NCBI GenBank assembly: GCA_000165345.1
Contig: CM000432.1
Location: forward strand, 416,001-480,000
Direction: 5' to 3'
Length of the DNA: 64,000 bases
The notes below the pieces were generated by a model. The model saw only the letters and a program-made list of their open reading frames with translations. It did no database searches and was not told where the DNA came from. Of the stretch, positions 3,838 through 38,548 are shown piece after piece. Within the stretch, counting starts at the first letter, position 1. Each line of letters opens with the position of its first letter. The translations under genes were made by a program, and so were the position numbers.

Positions 3838-4335
3838 CTTTGTTAAAATTTCTCAATAGTTTACTTCTTTTACTCTTTGAAATTTAAATATTTAATAAAA
3901 TTATTTTATTTAATATTAATATAAATTTTTATATTTTTAAATATTCCAATTCGTTATCTTTTTAATTTTTTTTTAATTTATAAAATAATTAAATTATATA
4001 ATAAATGACTATTCCCCACAAAGCCCGCCCAAAACACGTCAACACTAAAAATAATAAAATGCAGTAATTGAAAAAATAATTAGATGAATTAACAGCAAAT
4101 AATTTTTAAATAAGAATAATTAAACAACCTTTTAAATGATTTGCCTTAGTTAATATGTTTTTTATATTCACATAGAGCTAAATGCATTAATTATATTTTA
4201 ATTAATAATTGACGATAGATATTTCTCATTACTTTTATATGGCTTTTGATTATTTTCAATTTTTAAGTCCTTATGTTTACTAAGTTCTTTGTTCTAAAAT
4301 AATCAGAATTTTTTATCTTTAAGTGAATTTTATAA

Positions 4336-4935
4336 TTAGTCATCATCTTTTGTACATCTCCTACACATCAGCATTACCATACATATCATCATTGTAACAA
4401 TTACTCCAAATGCAATAGTAGTGAAAGACAAAGCACTGGGAGTTGCTGCTCCTCCCATTGCTCCTGGAATACCTCCTTGTCCGGGTACCATTCCCACTCC
4501 TTGAGCAGCCATTCCACCAACTGCTGCAGGCGCTCCAGGAGTAGCACCTGCTACCGCTCCAGGAGTAGCGCCTGCTGCCGCTCCAGGAGTAGCACCTGGA
4601 ACAGCTCCTGGAGCAGCAGCTATTGCAGCTCCTGGAGAAGCTGCTGCCATTGGATTTGCTGCAGCTCCAGCAGGACTTGCACCCGCAAGAGGATTAGCAA
4701 TGCCAGGAGTAGTCATTGCAGGGTTAGCAACAAGTGGTGAACCTGTTGCACTTTGGATTCCCGTGGAAACTGCAGAACCTGCAAGACCAAGTAAAAAATT
4801 ACCTAAGCCTCCTTCTTTAAGCCTTTCTTTATATCTTACACATTCTGAATTTCTTGTAATTATTAATAAACATAACGTTATTAACAAAAAGACTGAATTA
4901 TAAGGTTTTTTTAAAGACCGATTTAAAAATGGCAT
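4336..4935 (-). CDS. Ala/Gly/Pro/Thr-rich type I membrane protein (199 aa). It has a signal peptide, a low-complexity ectodomain with GATPGA(A/V) repeats, a C-terminal TM segment and a short acidic tail (CRRCTKDDD)
   Basis: The N-terminal hydrophobic segment VFLLITLCLLII and the C-terminal segment TIAFGVIVTMMICMVMLM fit that topology. The repeat region is strongly GC-rich (gcagc/cctgg runs), unlike its surroundings. The opposite-strand ORFs at 4477..4740 and 4700..4903 are artefacts of the repeat. Confidence 0.7.
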   Translation of the reverse strand: MPFLNRSLKKPYNSVFLLITLCLLIITRNSECVRYKERLKEGGLGNFLLGLAGSAVSTGIQSATGSPLVANPAMTTPGIANPLAGASPAGAAANPMAAASPGAAIAAAPGAVPGATPGAAAGATPGAVAGATPGAPAAVGGMAAQGVGMVPGQGGIPGAMGGAATPSALSFTTIAFGVIVTMMICMVMLMCRRCTKDDD

Positions 4936-11938: not shown

Positions 11939-14082
11939 TTATCTACGGTCGGTTTTACCCATACCACGTTTTCCTGAAAATAGATGCATCGGCATTTTAG
12001 TTGGAATACTTCTATCAGCTTCTCCTCTTCTAGCAAGCTTTCCAAGTTTAGACTGAGACTTTCTACGTAATTTCTCGGCTTTTTCTTGCTGTTTACCAGG
12101 TTTAAGTGAAGCATCAATACGATTGGGAGCAGGACTGTGGCCTCTAGGTAATCTTTTCCTCTTTAATAATTCTCTGTTTGCATTTTCATCATTAACCAAC
12201 ATTTCAATATCTTCATTACCCGTAATACTTCTTGATCTTTTACTTCTTAATAAAGAAATTTGATCAGAAACATCATTTACTGCCCTTCTTGTCAAAGACC
12301 TTCCTCTTTCTCTCTTATTCTCCTCTTTTCTTGCAAGACTTCTACCTCTTTCATAAAGCTTAGATACATCATAACCTAACCCATCAAGTTGATTTGTTAG
12401 TTTTGTTAATTCACCAGCAGATGCCTGTCTAGCTCTTCCTCTAGGTAATATAGGCGCATTTCTTGCCTTATTGTCCATATTTTCTCTCCTCTTAAGATTA
12501 ATCTTATTGTGTATGTTTTTAAGAGCTGTTTGCGTTTGCTCCCATAGCTTTTCATCAAACTCTTGCGATGGATCATTCATTAGTAATATCTCCTCCTCCT
12601 TTTCAAGTTCCTTCAATTTTTCTTCAATATCAGGATCGATAAAGTCAATAATATTTTTGCCATCCATAATTTCTGGAACCAAATCATATTTCCAATCATC
12701 ATCCTTAAGAATATACTTCCTATTCCAATCCATTTGATACACACCAGCACCACCCATTTCCTCTTCAAGCTCCTTTTCTAGTGGTCCGGATTTTGTTCTT
12801 GATTTAATTTCCTGAGATCTCTCTTGTATTACAGAATCAGGTATGCAAGGTGGCCTGTCTTTATTTAAAGGCGTTTCTGCAATATGGAGCCTTCTTGAAA
12901 TTGCATCAACTCTTTTAGTTTGTACTTTAATTTCTATTCTTTTTTGAAGAAGCTCATTACATGCTCTATTTTTTGCTTCTTCAACTCCAACTTTTTGCAT
13001 TGTTGACATAGTTAAGAAATCAACTACTTCAATCTTTCCTCCATTTTCATTAGATTCTCCTTCTAATCCTGTCTTAAGCTCTTCAATCATCTTCTTTTCT
13101 TCTGGTGATAGATCATCTACTGAACGAGAATCAATCTTGTTTAATATAATAAATACTGGTTTATTTCTAAATAAAGTTTTGATAGAATGGAAAAGTTTAG
13201 TTTGTTTCTCAATACTATAGCCACATTCTTCTGAAATATCGACAAAATATAAAATGCATGAATGAATATGTGCTAATGCTGTGATGGCTGTCATTTCTAT
13301 TGTATTCCTTTCATCTAATGGACGATCTAAAATACCAGGAGTATCAATTACTTGCCATCTAGCATAGTTGTAATCAAAGTGACCAACATATAAAGATTTT
13401 GTAGTAAATGCATATGGCTCAACTTCAACATTAGCATGAGAAACACAATTGATAAAACTACTCTTACCAACATTTGGATAACCACATACTATTAATGTTC
13501 TTGTTGTTGGATTAATACTTGGAAGACGTCCAATATGTTGCCTAACTTCTTCTAAGTACTCCAAAGGCGCCTGTAACTTCTTTAAACAAGTACACATTCT
13601 ACCTAATGCAGCTCTTTTTAACATTTTACATTTATATGGACTGTCTGCATATTTTAATAATCTCACATAATCTTTTGCCAAAGAATCAATAATATTCTTC
13701 GATCCAGAAATATGGCCTAATGCAAGCTTATAATGATCCCTATCATATAATACATTACATAGATCTGAATAAAATGGATGTATCTCATCTAATCTTGGAA
13801 ATTGCGTCAATATCATGCCTAATCTATCATGTATAGCTTGCTGGCAAAATTTTACTTTTCTCATATAAAATGATCTTATTCTACTAATTTGAAATTGCGG
13901 ATGTACTTGAGTCGGAGTCTTTCTTTGAGTCTTAGATAATACAATATCTATTAAGTCCTTGCTATTTGGTATAATAGTAATATCCTAATAATAAACAAAG
14001 ATATATTAATAAAGTTCATGCAGATTAATAATTTAGATTTTCAACTTACCTTAAATCTATGTCCTAAACTTGTTGAACTCAT
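11939..14082 (-). CDS. NOG1: Nucleolar GTP-binding protein 1 (NOG1/GTPBP4). Two exons (14050..14082 and 11939..13984) with a 65-nt intron (13985..14049, GTAAGT...TATTAG)
   Basis: Exon 1 encodes MSSTSLGHRFK and exon 2 encodes [46 protein letters not shown]... This reproduces the human GTPBP4 N-terminus ([48 protein letters not shown]). The G domain GYPNVGKSSFIN...DTPGILD, the conserved C-terminal GKLARRGEADR and the remainder all align. The ORF track begins at internal Met 13864. Confidence 0.9.
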
Positions 14083-33275: not shown

Positions 33276-33983
33276 TCACTCTTTAATAACAATTGCTAAA
33301 TTGTTATCAGAATCGATATTATTCTTGGTATTTACATTAGTAGTAGTAGTAGTAGTAGCATCACCAGCTTTAACTTCTTTGTCTTTTATATCTCTTGAAT
33401 TAATTCTTGATAAAAGAGGTTTATTATCCAAATTACTTGAAATTTTATTTATAGAGTTCATATACTTTGAAGATCTAAATTTTTTACCAGATAACTCTTC
33501 AAAAATACTTGATGCTTCTATTTCATTCAAATATTCAGAAATCTTCCAAATACATATCACACTCAAAATGGTACTAATCATTAATACGAATGATAAAGTC
33601 AAGCCAACACTAAAATCTAATATCACAAAATCCTTTGTATTTTTATACATAATACTTTCAACAAATAACCCAATTGAAATCAAAAATGTAACTAAATTCT
33701 CCATCGCTAAAAGAGGAATTGTTGACCTTATTGCGAGTCCTGATGGACAAAGAATCCCAATCATTCCAACTATTGATGTGATTACATCAATAGATCCAAA
33801 TGCCAAACATACTGCAATAAATATTGGCGAAGAAACCTTTAACCAAGCAACGCTAAATAGTGATATTCCGTAAACCATCGGGAGAAAATATGATAAAAAA
33901 GCTCTGAACCTTGTGCTAAATATCTCGCAACTCATCTTTTTTTCAATAACTTCTGTGTCACTTTCTTTAGAAGCATTGTCCAT
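33276..33983 (-). CDS. Hypothetical four-TM membrane protein (235 aa) with a poly-Thr stretch near the C-terminus
   Basis: ATG ORF. Four hydrophobic helices lie in the N-terminal 150 aa and a TTTTTT run is encoded by (act)n at 33340-33360. Confidence 0.6.
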   Translation of the reverse strand: MDNASKESDTEVIEKKMSCEIFSTRFRAFLSYFLPMVYGISLFSVAWLKVSSPIFIAVCLAFGSIDVITSIVGMIGILCPSGLAIRSTIPLLAMENLVTFLISIGLFVESIMYKNTKDFVILDFSVGLTLSFVLMISTILSVICIWKISEYLNEIEASSIFEELSGKKFRSSKYMNSINKISSNLDNKPLLSRINSRDIKDKEVKAGDATTTTTTNVNTKNNIDSDNNLAIVIKE

Positions 33984-34306: not shown

Positions 34307-34954
34307 TCAATCAATTATTACAATCTTCAATTCTCGACTATACTTATCTCCTAAACTAATATTTGCAAATAATGAATAAATATATGAATAAATTACTGAT
34401 TTAGTTTCGTTTGATAAATGTTCATCAATATCTATTAGCTTATCAAATTGATTGATTATTAAATATTTAATTTCTCCATATTTATATAATTCATGTATTC
34501 GGAGAATAATTTCAAACAACGAAATTTCTCCCCCCATAGAACCAACAGATAGTGATAACCTATCAGAATACTTTATTAGCACATTGTTTAAAAACTTATA
34601 TTTAGATAATTGCCCAGGCTCATTCCTAAGTGATTTATGAAAATCTCTATCTAATATCAATAATATATTTTTTTTTCGAGTATAGTCTGAATGAATTGAT
34701 TGCTCTTGCAACTCATTAATATTGGTTCCGTGTAATGAATTAATTTTCTCGGATAAATGCTCACAATACTTCAATAGCCAATCAGATTTATCTGTATCTG
34801 ATGTAAAATCATTAAATCTCAAAACTAATATGTTTTTATTATATTCAAGCATGAAAGCTTGAAATAAATTTTCATTAATTTCTTCATTTAGGAAAAAGGT
34901 ATTTAATGCTACATCGTCGAAATCTACTTGATCTTCAGCCAGCTCAGATAGCAT
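34307..34954 (-). CDS. Hypothetical protein (215 aa)
   Basis: ATG ORF with coding-like composition. No motif is recognised. Confidence 0.5.
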   Translation of the reverse strand: MLSELAEDQVDFDDVALNTFFLNEEINENLFQAFMLEYNKNILVLRFNDFTSDTDKSDWLLKYCEHLSEKINSLHGTNINELQEQSIHSDYTRKKNILLILDRDFHKSLRNEPGQLSKYKFLNNVLIKYSDRLSLSVGSMGGEISLFEIILRIHELYKYGEIKYLIINQFDKLIDIDEHLSNETKSVIYSYIYSLFANISLGDKYSRELKIVIID

Positions 34955-35154
34955 CTAATTGTCCAATATTGATTAGGTTCTTTTTTATTCTTTAATGATT
35001 ATAATTTAAAAAAAAAAAAAAAAAGTTGTTTTCCTTCGAATAATTTTGATTATTTGTCCCTCACTTCCACCCCCCAATTTCAGCTAACTAATAATACTGA
35101 AGAATTTGGCAAAACTTCGCTTATGAATAGCAATAAAATACTTAACAGTAGACT

Positions 35155-35892
35155 TTAAACTGAAAATGATGCTTTTTCCAATATATTTGATAGGAATTTT
35201 GCTAAAATTGCTGAGATTACACGTGTTGAAACTACGATCAATATATATTTTCCTTGTACTGTAGGTGTAATTAATTGCCATGCAACCCAAATTAATGTTA
35301 TATATGTAAAACTTCTCCAGTTCTGAAAAGGTTTAATTGGCCAATTAAAGATCCTATTATTATTTACTACTTCAATTTTCATGTGTAACTTACTTTCGCA
35401 GACCTCATAAAAAAATTCTTTACTATTAAAAATATTAATACTAGTGTAAATATAGTATTTACTGTTATCCCCACTAATAAAGTAGAATAATTTAAAATCT
35501 AAAATCATTGATTTAATACTTTTATATTTATGAATAACTTTTGTTACTTACCAATTTATATTTAAATATGTTATAAACTATTTTAACCATTGTAGGAACA
35601 ACTGTCATTTCAAACAATAAGCTAATTAGAAAAAACAAATAAAAATAAATTTCATGTTTTGTATAAATGGATTTTAACTGGTCGATAGTAATTGAATTAA
35701 TATTCCATATTTCACTAAATGACTTATTTTGAATTTTAAATGATAATAATTTATCCAATTGATGTGGTAAGCCTTTATGAACAATAAATTTAAACATTTA
35801 TTTATATTTGAAGTTGTTAATTTCTACTTACCTATTTTTGAACTCCCATCAGGCTGTTGGATTAATATTGGTTCAATCTCTTCAACAATCAT
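35155..35892 (-). CDS. Small multi-pass membrane protein (about 184 aa) encoded by four exons (35832..35892, 35552..35772, 35394..35498, 35155..35322)
   Basis: All three introns (59, 53 and 71 nt) start with GTAAGT and end with AAAG, TTTAG and TTTCAG respectively. The exon phases are consistent (1, 0, 0). The ORF-track fragments 35528..35797 and 35155..35508 are joined by this model, and the track reads exon 3 in the wrong frame. The product is MIVEEIEPILIQQPDGSSKIG LPHQLDKLLSFKIQNKSFSEIWNINS...TMVKIVYNIFKYKL ILNYSTLLVGITVNTIFTLVLIFLIVKNFFMRSAK NWRSFTYITLIWVAWQLITPTVQGKYILIVVSTRVISAILAKFLSNILEKASFSV. No family is recognised. Confidence 0.5.
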
Positions 35893-36592
35893 TTTATTTG
35901 TAAATTTTTTTTAGGAGATTATAATTTGTCTAAAATTAAATAACTCAATAAATTTACTTAATAGTCACTTTTCATACACGTAATTTCCACATTACATGTT
36001 GCATGCATATTTATACAGAAAATATTTTTTTTGGTACCGGTACATGTAAATTACTATAATTTAAAATTAGGATATTCAATTAGAAATATATCCAAACTTA
36101 ACTTATTATTAAATTATGAATTCAATTAATCTAATTTTTTTAATGAATATAATTCGGAAACTTCTTTATCCTACAAAGTGGAAATTTAAAAACTACTAAT
36201 TGTAGAATATTCATATAGAAATAATTAACCAGGTTTAAATATAAATATTTAGTTTGAAAATACTTTTTTTAGATATTAATAACAATAAATGTGTTGTTTA
36301 TATTGTTTATTTCTATTTTGCATGCAATTATTTTAAAAGGTCCTACGGAGACTTGACATCCACATTTGGCGCATCTTTATTTTATGTGGCTTTAATCAAA
36401 TTATTTATGCAACAATAGCCAAAAAAAGTAAAACAAAATTGATATCATAAAGAAAAAATATTCATGTAACACAACTTAATGAATACTTTATGTATTATTT
36501 CCATTACTTAGGTTAACAGAGTAACTTTTTTCTTGTAAATTATTTAAATATGTTCAATTAGAAGATCTATTAAGAAGAAAACACCTTCAGAA

Positions 36593-38548
36593 ATGAAATT
36601 TGAAAATGAAGAATATTATGAAAAAATAACTGACAAAGATCGAGAGCTTAGCAGCTACTCTGAAACTAGTAACAGTTATCTTTGCTCAAATAAAGAAGAA
36701 AATTATAAAGAAATTAGTACCAAAAGCTTTCACACAACTCCAAAAAGATTATTAAAATATAATAAAAATGAAAGTGATAATGAAAGTTTACAACAAAAAA
36801 TTAGATCTAAAAAAATTGCAAGAAATGAACTCAGTGAATTAAAAAGAATTGAAATAGAATTGGTAAAAGAAATGGACTCCGCGAGATCTACGAGTAGAAA
36901 TTCATCTGAAAATAGAAAAAAATACGAGAACTATTTGCTGAAACGAACCGATAAAATTTCTTTGTTAGAGCTAGAAATTTTGACAGAAACAATTAATATT
37001 GATTCTAATAATAATGACCAAAGTGCATTAGTACAGGATATACTTTCATTTATTGATCGTTTAAAAAATTTATTTGCAATATTGAATAATAAAAAAATCC
37101 AGTTTCCATTGGATTATTATCAAAAATGGGTTTTAGAATATAATCAAATAATAAATAATTTATATAATACAAATAAAGAATCTTCAACTAATTACGAACA
37201 TTACTTCAAATTAAATGTTGAGTCAGTTAAATTAATTCGATCATTTTTTTATTATTTCCAAAATTTATCTGAATTATTTGTTAAAGAAAAGAAAAATAAT
37301 AAAAAAATATTAAATAATAATATGGTATTAAAACAGGATAATATTAAATTATCACATTTAATTAAATCATTAAAAATCAATCATAATAAAGAAACTGAAA
37401 AGAAATCAAACGGTTTATCCATAGAGAAAACATTGGAAGTGTCAATTATTAATAAAAATACTACTGGAAAACAATTTTCTGATGCATTAGTTGGTACTGA
37501 TGAACCAATTTGTTTAATAAATAATAATGTAAATAATGATGATATAAACAATATTCTCATTGATCTTATTCCAAACAAAAATAAGCAAACTTTATCTAAA
37601 ATAGATTCAATAAATGAAATAAGCATGTTGAGAACTGGAAGATTCCAAGATGCTCAAAACTATAGGGAAGGAATAATGAAAATAACTCAAGAATATAGTG
37701 GGCTTTATGATCGTACTAGAAATGAATATATTGAGAGATTATTGGAAAGACAAAAAAACCATGATATGGAAATAAAATTAATGATATCAAGCCATAAAGA
37801 AGACATTGATAAGATGAACGACTATTTTATTGAAGAAAAAAGGAAGATAAGTGAACAACATGATAGACAACTAAACGAGTTGCTGCAGGAGAATAAAAGA
37901 AAAATTGATATTATGAAATCAGATCATTCTTTAGAATTAAGGTTAGTACAACAGAAATATAAGCAAATAATTAATGATAACAATAAAGAAAAAGATAACT
38001 CAATTCAAGCTTTCAAGATAAAATTTGAGCATATATTGATTGACATGGAGAGTAATAAAGATAGGGAATTGTTGAATATGCAAATAGAATATGAAGATAA
38101 AATCAATGAACTAAAAGAAAATTATAAAAATATTATAGATAATTTAGAACTTGAATTACAAAGAAAAGAATTGCAATTCCAAGAAGAAAAGAAAATGATA
38201 ATTAATGAATTTGTCACAGCTCATAAAAGAGAGGTTGAGATATTAAAAAGTCAATCAATTAAATCCTTTGATTTCGAAAGAGATATTGACAGCCAATTAA
38301 TTACTGATACTAATATTTCTATTAATGATAACAATAATGATGAAAACATTGAAAACAATAAAAAGGATAAGATCATCTTAGGTGATGATAAAAAATATAA
38401 CGAAATTATCAAGAGATTAGATAATATAACAAGTAGAAGTTCTTCAAAAGCTGAAAGTGGAAAAATTGGATTGTTTGAGAATAAGCATTCATCAACTACA
38501 AATTCAACCGCATCATCTTCGGCTATTCCATCAAACAATATATGTTAA
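36593..38548 (+). CDS. Hypothetical Lys/Glu/Asn-rich coiled-coil protein (651 aa)
   Basis: ATG ORF with a heptad-like charged low-complexity central region and no enzymatic motif. Confidence 0.65.
   Translation: MKFENEEYYEKITDKDRELSSYSETSNSYLCSNKEENYKEISTKSFHTTPKRLLKYNKNESDNESLQQKIRSKKIARNELSELKRIEIELVKEMDSARSTSRNSSENRKKYENYLLKRTDKISLLELEILTETINIDSNNNDQSALVQDILSFIDRLKNLFAILNNKKIQFPLDYYQKWVLEYNQIINNLYNTNKESSTNYEHYFKLNVESVKLIRSFFYYFQNLSELFVKEKKNNKKILNNNMVLKQDNIKLSHLIKSLKINHNKETEKKSNGLSIEKTLEVSIINKNTTGKQFSDALVGTDEPICLINNNVNNDDINNILIDLIPNKNKQTLSKIDSINEISMLRTGRFQDAQNYREGIMKITQEYSGLYDRTRNEYIERLLERQKNHDMEIKLMISSHKEDIDKMNDYFIEEKRKISEQHDRQLNELLQENKRKIDIMKSDHSLELRLVQQKYKQIINDNNKEKDNSIQAFKIKFEHILIDMESNKDRELLNMQIEYEDKINELKENYKNIIDNLELELQRKELQFQEEKKMIINEFVTAHKREVEILKSQSIKSFDFERDIDSQLITDTNISINDNNNDENIENNKKDKIILGDDKKYNEIIKRLDNITSRSSSKAESGKIGLFENKHSSTTNSTASSSAIPSNNIC

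Follow-up and report, generated by a model that had tools for sequence, protein, structure and literature searches.

The closest described counterparts of the gene considered here are unnamed hypothetical proteins of other Cryptosporidium species, and in two of these, C. xiaoi (RS030_1141) and C. ryanae (FG386_002388), a four-exon gene with a product of 184 amino acids (aa) has already been annotated. The gene itself is cgd4_1810 of Cryptosporidium parvum, located on the minus strand at positions 35155-35892 of a 64,000-nucleotide (nt) stretch of chromosome 4 of C. parvum Iowa II (GenBank assembly GCA_000165345.1, contig CM000432.1, forward-strand positions 416,001 to 480,000), which is referred to as the window throughout. 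The comparison of seven Cryptosporidium species presented here shows that this interval, as judged from its pattern of conservation, is one spliced protein-coding gene and that the four-exon form is the correct form of C. parvum cgd4_1810. The 184-aa form as such is already known in the sister species, and the gene described is an ordinary one, spliced and encoding a protein not yet characterised.

The long-standing GenBank/RefSeq model of the locus (cgd4_1810, EAK87899 / XP_625775, Iowa II), which recurs in C. hominis and in CPCDC, is an unspliced open reading frame (ORF) of 117 aa that shares the frame of exon 4. A second model, of 133 aa (CPATCC_0020920 in IOWA-ATCC and cpbgf_4001810 in BGF), contains exons 1-3 with introns 1 and 2 removed and intron 3 retained, and has a 137-aa equivalent in C. 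meleagridis. In a third, of 344 aa (CPHLJ_4g1800, CPCDC_4g1800 and CHM_4g1800), exons 1-3 are spliced over exon 4 onto the ORF of the neighbouring gene cgd4_1800; the C. tyzzeri model of the same locus has 75 aa. The junction of exon 3 with exon 4 is missing from all public C. parvum and C. hominis models. An initial annotation of the window, made from its letters and a list of ORFs, had described the gene as hidden in an intergenic gap; it was right in that only ORF fragments appear there in the list, but the locus is annotated in every assembly, with models that are conflicting or wrong in C. parvum and C. hominis.

Gene structure and conservation across Cryptosporidium

The four exons (Table 1) join in frame to give 555 nt, an uninterrupted coding sequence for 184 aa. 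All three junctions have a GT donor and an AG acceptor, as in spliceosomal introns of the U2 type, and the open frame is kept across them; the start codon lies in an A-rich context (aaaATG), and read-through of intron 1 reaches a stop codon after two codons. The minus strand of the ORF list holds fragments only, among them an 89-aa ORF that corresponds to exon 2 plus read-through and the 117-aa ORF, in which exon 4 is in frame, intron 3 is read through and exon 3 is out of frame. A scan of 34900-36650 with Rfam gave no match, so that no noncoding RNA accounts for the gap. Taken by itself, the evidence from this single window, the G+C content of which is 27%, is only suggestive: GTAAGT shows no enrichment (16 found vs 20.4 expected), three of the 16 occurrences cluster on a single strand within 445 nt, as in 1.9% of random placements (p about 0.019), and 248 open-frame combinations of three GT..AG introns can be assembled at the locus under loose limits. 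The four-exon model is settled because of the comparison between species, and not by the window alone.

The C. parvum locus was compared with the orthologous loci of C. hominis, C. xiaoi, C. ryanae, C. canis, C. ubiquitum and C. serpentis, the last being a gastric species and the other six of the seven intestinal ones; C. muris and C. andersoni were not included. Synteny is kept in the six other species, where the genes for a DEAD helicase and a Tctex-1 protein, the 651-aa gene, the cgd4_1810 ortholog and the 215-aa gene occur together. The best-scoring gene model of each species has the identical three junctions, in the same phases and with GT..AG throughout. The six intestinal species share exon lengths of 61/221/105/168 nt, and C. 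serpentis has exons of 49/221/105/165 nt, exons 2 and 3 keeping their length in seven of seven species. The shortest intron measures 49 nt and the longest 109 nt (intron 1, 56-109 nt; intron 2, 49-88 nt; intron 3, 52-83 nt, with its GT and AG at the identical position in all seven), and read-through of the introns, intron 2 included, meets stop codons in most species.

Variable sites at the first, second and third codon positions number 79/31/144 over the whole gene in the six intestinal species, and each exon is likewise patterned, with 33/7/54 in exon 2 and 20/12/44 in exon 4. The ratio of nonsynonymous to synonymous substitution rates (dN/dS) is about 0.06 to 0.22 for the whole gene in the pairs tested and about 0.06-0.19 for exon 4, and exon 1, with a dN of 0.02-0.07, is the best-conserved stretch of the protein. 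Identity is about 0.5-0.69 in the introns vs about 0.54-0.92 in the exons; for intron 1 of C. parvum it is 0.48-0.67 with the other species and 0.93 with C. hominis. Even between C. parvum and C. hominis the two compartments can be told apart, the exons differing by one synonymous change (CTA/CTG, exon 3) in 555 nt and the introns by six single-nucleotide polymorphisms (SNPs) and a 3-nt indel in 183 nt (Fisher p = 0.0012); three of these SNPs lie in the 71 nt of intron 3, and exon 4 is 100% identical. Judged by these codon-type patterns, each exon is under purifying selection, and the introns, whose positions and phases are conserved, drift in length and sequence.

The initial annotation had proposed four exons with these junction phases and GTAAGT introns of 59, 53 and 71 nt, and had noted that the ORF list misreads exon 3; the C. 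parvum sequence and the seven-species comparison bear out both points. Conservation in other Cryptosporidium genomes had been suggested as a check, and the reading frame and introns are kept in all six orthologous loci. The annotated models of C. canis (OIY81_1269, 173 aa; locus 4001..4754) and C. ubiquitum (cubi_01337, 165 aa; locus 4001..4772) use non-conserved splice sites, and when these loci are re-derived with the conserved junctions each gives 184 aa. Introns 1 and 2 receive indirect support because the 133-aa IOWA-ATCC model removes both, the introns of that annotation being, according to its authors, 100% supported by RNA sequencing (RNA-seq; PMC8744675).

Exon 4 contains no methionine codon and hence cannot itself initiate translation. 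In five of the seven species its frame reaches no further than 0-27 nt upstream of the acceptor before it is closed, no ATG lying in that stretch, and there these two features mean that exon 4 is translatable only once it has been spliced to exon 3. The same exon bears on the view embodied in the 133-aa models, according to which the main product would consist of exons 1-3 with intron 3 retained, ending in VSYT and a stop codon, and exon 4 would be untranslated. That view comes from manually curated, RNA-seq-guided annotation, and a retained intron 3 would give precisely this ending, four codons into the intron. We nevertheless regard it as highly improbable: exon 4 shows the coding-type constraint and the identity with C. 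hominis described above, next to the SNPs of intron 3, and the donor, acceptor and phase of that intron are conserved in seven species, whereas the read-through tail is conserved between species neither in length nor in sequence. The resulting two-helix truncation would moreover lose the best-conserved membrane segment of the protein, WQLxTPxxQGRY...STRxISAI.

The chance that the original cgd4_1810 model is right, with an unspliced 117-aa ORF and non-coding upstream pieces, is smaller still and in our view negligible. The ORF is open in both C. parvum and C. hominis, but its N-terminal 62 residues consist of exon 3 read out of frame and then intron 3, and the three amino acid differences between the C. 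parvum and C. hominis versions all fall in this spurious part. The equivalent frame is closed in the five species just mentioned, and exons 1 and 2, which the model leaves out, are conserved coding sequence across the genus. The comparative data effectively refute the 117-aa model, and by the same data the ORF is a chance feature of the lineage of C. parvum and C. hominis.

Possible splicing to the downstream gene cgd4_1800

The 344-aa models join exons 1-3 to cgd4_1800 and leave out exon 4, and a protein of this form could be either the main product or an isoform made in addition to the 184-aa one. Strong constraint acts on exon 4, which is expressible only via the exon 3-exon 4 junction, and it follows that a fusion cannot be the sole product. 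Other features of the locus are compatible with a fusion. Exon 3 ends in phase 0, and a TAG directly precedes the ATG of cgd4_1800 in the six intestinal species; TAGATG is the sole fully conserved block of the 200-nt spacer besides the stop codon of the upstream gene. As a start context TAG is atypical, being found in one of the 27 long ORFs of the window, 22 of which have A or G at position -3. Three public models have exactly the fused form, and cgd4_1810 and cgd4_1800 are both silent in oocysts and on at 24-48 h. Against this, the three models carry names from a single scheme and are perhaps not independent, and the IOWA-ATCC annotators themselves have warned of false exon fusions that arise from reads overlapping adjacent genes on the same strand (PMC8744675).

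The fusion also fits poorly with what can be seen of cgd4_1800 itself. Its ATG is conserved as a start (M1), and C. serpentis, whose spacer spans about 740 nt, lacks the TAG and any AG in front of the ATG. The G-rich patch TGGGGGGTGGAAGTGAGGGAC lies about 100 nt upstream of the ATG, and with comparable G runs at the matching relative position in C. hominis, C. xiaoi, C. ryanae, C. canis and C. ubiquitum it is present in all six intestinal species; it suggests that the gene has a promoter of its own, of which the patch would be a candidate G-box-like element. The cgd4_1800 protein models as a soluble RecA/Rad51-like fold, which it would be odd to tether to a two-helix membrane hairpin, and the gene is female-enriched (log fold change 3.31; Tandel et al. 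2019), whereas cgd4_1810 is absent from the same alphabetical differential-expression table. On balance a spliced fusion, as main product or as isoform, seems unlikely to us.

A gene with two outputs, in which exons 1-3 are joined either to exon 4 (184 aa) or to the TAG-ATG acceptor of cgd4_1800 (344 aa), has the same low probability. If it were true, it would amount to a genus-conserved switch between alternative last exons, and the 344-aa route would tether a RecA/Rad51-paralog-like, female-enriched domain to the membrane; one re-annotation lists only three putative alternatively spliced genes (PMC8744675). The TAG-ATG question also bears on how often same-strand neighbours in a compact genome are truly splice-fused. 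Two other explanations of the TAG-ATG arrangement were considered and rejected. An upstream ORF or termination-reinitiation is contradicted by an in-frame upstream stretch of only five codons that contains no ATG, and the unconserved spacer sequence speaks against an upstream coding exon of cgd4_1800 within it.

Family placement and predicted architecture

The 184-aa product of the four-exon gene was placed by profile searches in which the C. xiaoi ortholog served as lead sequence and the exons of the window as extra rows. By full-length sequence similarity the orthologs are matched with E-values of 1e-68 to 1e-70 and a coverage of 93-100%, the five matches in intestinal species having an identity of 60-70%, and the C. 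serpentis ortholog ACR3K2_21470 is matched by the profile with E = 8.5e-64. Similarity and synteny together assign the protein to a Cryptosporidium family, in which RS030_1141, FG386_002388, ACR3K2_21470, cubi_01337 and OIY81_1269 are orthologs that share the synteny and the three intron positions.

Beyond this family the searches gave no relative. A profile hidden Markov model (HMM) run against 1.84 billion representatives retrieved only the C. serpentis ortholog, the 117-aa fragment of C. hominis and one repeat artefact, the low-complexity protein P0027, which matches 28 residues and was rejected as a relative. The second profile search, of a 5.8-billion-cluster database, returned only Cryptosporidium entries and unspliced fragments, and the Logan fragments matched are unspliced ORFs of exon 2, not transcripts. 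Five orthologs were scored with Pfam and no family exceeded its cut-off, HeH, Tmpp129 and Arv1 each appearing below threshold in one of the five; the HeH/LEM domain (PF12949), at 13.2 bits vs a cut-off of 28.9 (E = 0.075), was not accepted. A sequence-profile search of PDB found no credible match, and the best one, to GLUT1 (E = 0.22), was rejected as a match of hydrophobic segments. Fold matches are to generic helix bundles and no better than those to soluble designed bundles, the model behind them having a predicted local distance difference test score (pLDDT) of only 56.7. Tetraspan bundles of the Got1/Sft2, TRAP-gamma and synaptogyrin/synaptophysin types resemble the protein in shape only, with no sequence or profile similarity, and the resemblance is no sign of membership in these groups. 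As far as sequence searches reach, the family is shown to be restricted to Cryptosporidium.

With a 19-residue Kyte-Doolittle window, hydropathy reaches at least 1.6 in segments 62-80, 102-120 and 156-174, and a weaker fourth segment spans 133-150. The protein is predicted to have no cleavable signal peptide and four transmembrane (TM) helices, at about 62-84, 97-119, 133-150 and 155-174, and the AlphaFold2 model of the C. xiaoi ortholog likewise contains four long helices. The N-terminal region of about 61 residues is acidic; its first 21 positions, M-I/V-I/V-EEIEPILI-x-QPDG-x-SK-I/L-G, hardly vary within the genus and probably serve as a binding interface. Between TM2 and TM3 lies the loop VKNFFMRSAKNWR, with four basic residues (K/R) and no acidic one, from which, by the positive-inside rule, we infer that the N terminus, this loop and the C terminus are cytosolic. 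Invariant polar residues are found in or beside the membrane (E75, N108, N122, Q145, T148-P149-T150, Q152-G153 and S161-T162-R163).

On these features the protein might belong to a complex of the endomembranes or the plasma membrane, as a small tetraspan subunit or adaptor, a role that we propose tentatively and consider doubtful as yet. In such a role the polar intramembrane residues would pack the tetraspan protein against a partner, the N-terminal peptide would recruit a cytosolic factor, and the protein would act late in intracellular development rather than in the invasive sporozoite.

Expression

Expression values for cgd4_1810, in fragments per kilobase of transcript per million mapped reads (FPKM), were taken from Table S3 of Matos et al. 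2019 (PMC6536522), where they were counted on the old 117-aa model. The FPKM is 0-1.8 in 18 oocyst and sporozoite samples and 0 in four samples at 2 h post-infection. At 24 h it is 0, 87.5, 0 and 0 in four MDBK samples and 0, 2.8, 0 and 19.2 in four IPEC-J2 samples, and at 48 h the five MDBK samples give 30.3, 37.0, 40.3, 40.5 and 10.6; the log2 ratio of extracellular to intracellular expression is -5.9 (PMC6536522). The gene is transcribed and stage-regulated, and its expression is not the constitutive one of a housekeeping gene (at most 1.8 in extracellular stages vs 10.6-40.5 at 48 h).

These data complete the comparison with the initial annotation of the protein. It had foreseen at least three TM helices in about 184 aa, in agreement with the three strong hydropathy segments and the weaker fourth, and it had assigned the protein to no known family, as did the Pfam, profile HMM, PDB and fold searches. 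Its further suggestion, a conserved housekeeping small subunit of the endoplasmic reticulum (ER) or Golgi, is not supported: expression is stage-specific, and neither a homolog outside Cryptosporidium nor a curated profile match, as would be expected of a pan-eukaryotic ER/Golgi subunit, was found in Pfam, the 1.84e9 representatives or PDB.

Weight of the evidence

Taken as a whole, the reading of the locus as a four-exon gene for a 184-aa membrane protein, with the architecture and genus restriction outlined above, is very probably the best explanation available. Several points weigh against it. The support for the junction of intron 3 is comparative, and the curated IOWA-ATCC model retains this intron; its retention may be common, or the junction may have been rare in the libraries used by the curators. 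A collection of 15 billion proteins, the Logan assemblies included, does not contain the exact 184-aa product of C. parvum. The AlphaFold2 model has low confidence (pLDDT 56.7, predicted template modelling score 0.38), and the proposed function is drawn from features of the sequence. The genus restriction, finally, is a negative result of sequence-profile searches, and a relative at the level of the fold could exist.

Other features of the locus

A search of the protein collection identified four ORFs around cgd4_1810, including its public 117-aa version, as exact matches to C. parvum Iowa II proteins (Table 1), in keeping with the organism having been named as Cryptosporidium at the outset. 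The cgd4_1810 protein is not a paralog of the neighbouring 235-aa membrane protein, and in a literature search the gene identifiers of cgd4_1810 were absent from the text of papers.

The palindrome TGCATGCA lies upstream of cgd4_1810 as a candidate promoter element, and copies are also found upstream of the ortholog in C. hominis, C. xiaoi, C. ryanae and C. ubiquitum. The window contains seven copies vs 0.62 expected, all of them intergenic. The palindrome presumably resembles a promoter motif of the ApiAP2 type.

On the other side of the divergent spacer, the start of cgd4_1820 reads tcagaaATG or ttagaaATG in C. parvum, C. hominis, C. canis and C. ubiquitum. The YAG two bases before this ATG could be the acceptor of an intron in the 5' untranslated region, or could be there by chance.

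Elsewhere in the window, a GTAAGT...TAG intron of 65 nt joins a short first exon in frame to a 641-aa ORF, and is an internal example of the intron style seen in cgd4_1810. The extended N terminus of this ORF, DITIIPNSKDLIDIVLSKTQRKTPT..., looks like that of the nucleolar GTP-binding protein NOG1.

Table 1. Positions in the window of cgd4_1810, its neighbours and other features mentioned in the text
Feature	Position	Strand	Remarks
Exon 1, 61 nt	35832..35892	-	ATG at 35892-35890; encodes MIVEEIEPILIQQPDGSSKI and the first base of G21
Intron 1, 59 nt	35773..35831	-	GTAAGT...AAAG, phase 1
Exon 2, 221 nt	35552..35772	-	Residues 21-94: remainder of the N-terminal soluble region and TM1
Intron 2, 53 nt	35499..35551	-	GTAAGT...TTAG, phase 0
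Exon 3, 105 nt	35394..35498	-	Residues 95-129: TM2 and basic loop KNFFMRSAK
Intron 3, 71 nt	35323..35393	-	GTAAGT...TCAG, phase 0
Exon 4, 168 nt (165 + TAA at 35157-35155)	35155..35322	-	Residues 130-184: TM3, WQLITPTVQGKY turn, TM4
cgd4_1810, public ORF, 117 aa	35155..35508		Exact C. parvum Iowa II match
TAG abutting the cgd4_1800 ATG	34955..34957	-	Possible alternative 3' splice site; acceptor in the 344-aa models
G-rich patch TGGGGGGTGGAAGTGAGGGAC	35056..35076	-	About 100-120 nt upstream of the cgd4_1800 ATG; spacer about 21% G+C
cgd4_1800, 215 aa	34307..34954		Exact C. parvum Iowa II match
235-aa ORF	33276..33983		Exact C. parvum Iowa II match
cgd4_1820, 651 aa	36593..38548	+	Exact C. parvum Iowa II match; divergent from cgd4_1810
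TGCATGCA palindrome	36000..36007	.	108 nt upstream of the cgd4_1810 ATG; candidate promoter element
TGCATGCA, second copy	36319..36326	.	Same divergent spacer, closer to cgd4_1820
TGCATGCA, further copies	19208, 29741, 31259, 48157, 48161
First exon joined to the 641-aa ORF	14050..14082		MSSTSLGHRFK
GTAAGT...TAG intron, 65 nt	13985..14049	-
641-aa ORF	11939..13864

Implications

A major diarrhoeal disease of childhood has C. parvum and C. hominis as its reference species, and it is in these species that three inconsistent public models of the gene coexist, none of which joins the conserved N-terminal half of the protein to its conserved C-terminal half. The 184-aa model should take the place of the public cgd4_1810 models in C. 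parvum and C. hominis, a correction that would mend ortholog tables, expression counts, the databases used in proteomic searches and the design of tagging and knockout experiments. As a genus-restricted membrane protein of late intracellular stages, the product of the corrected gene joins the pool of parasite-specific candidates, without being singled out among them.

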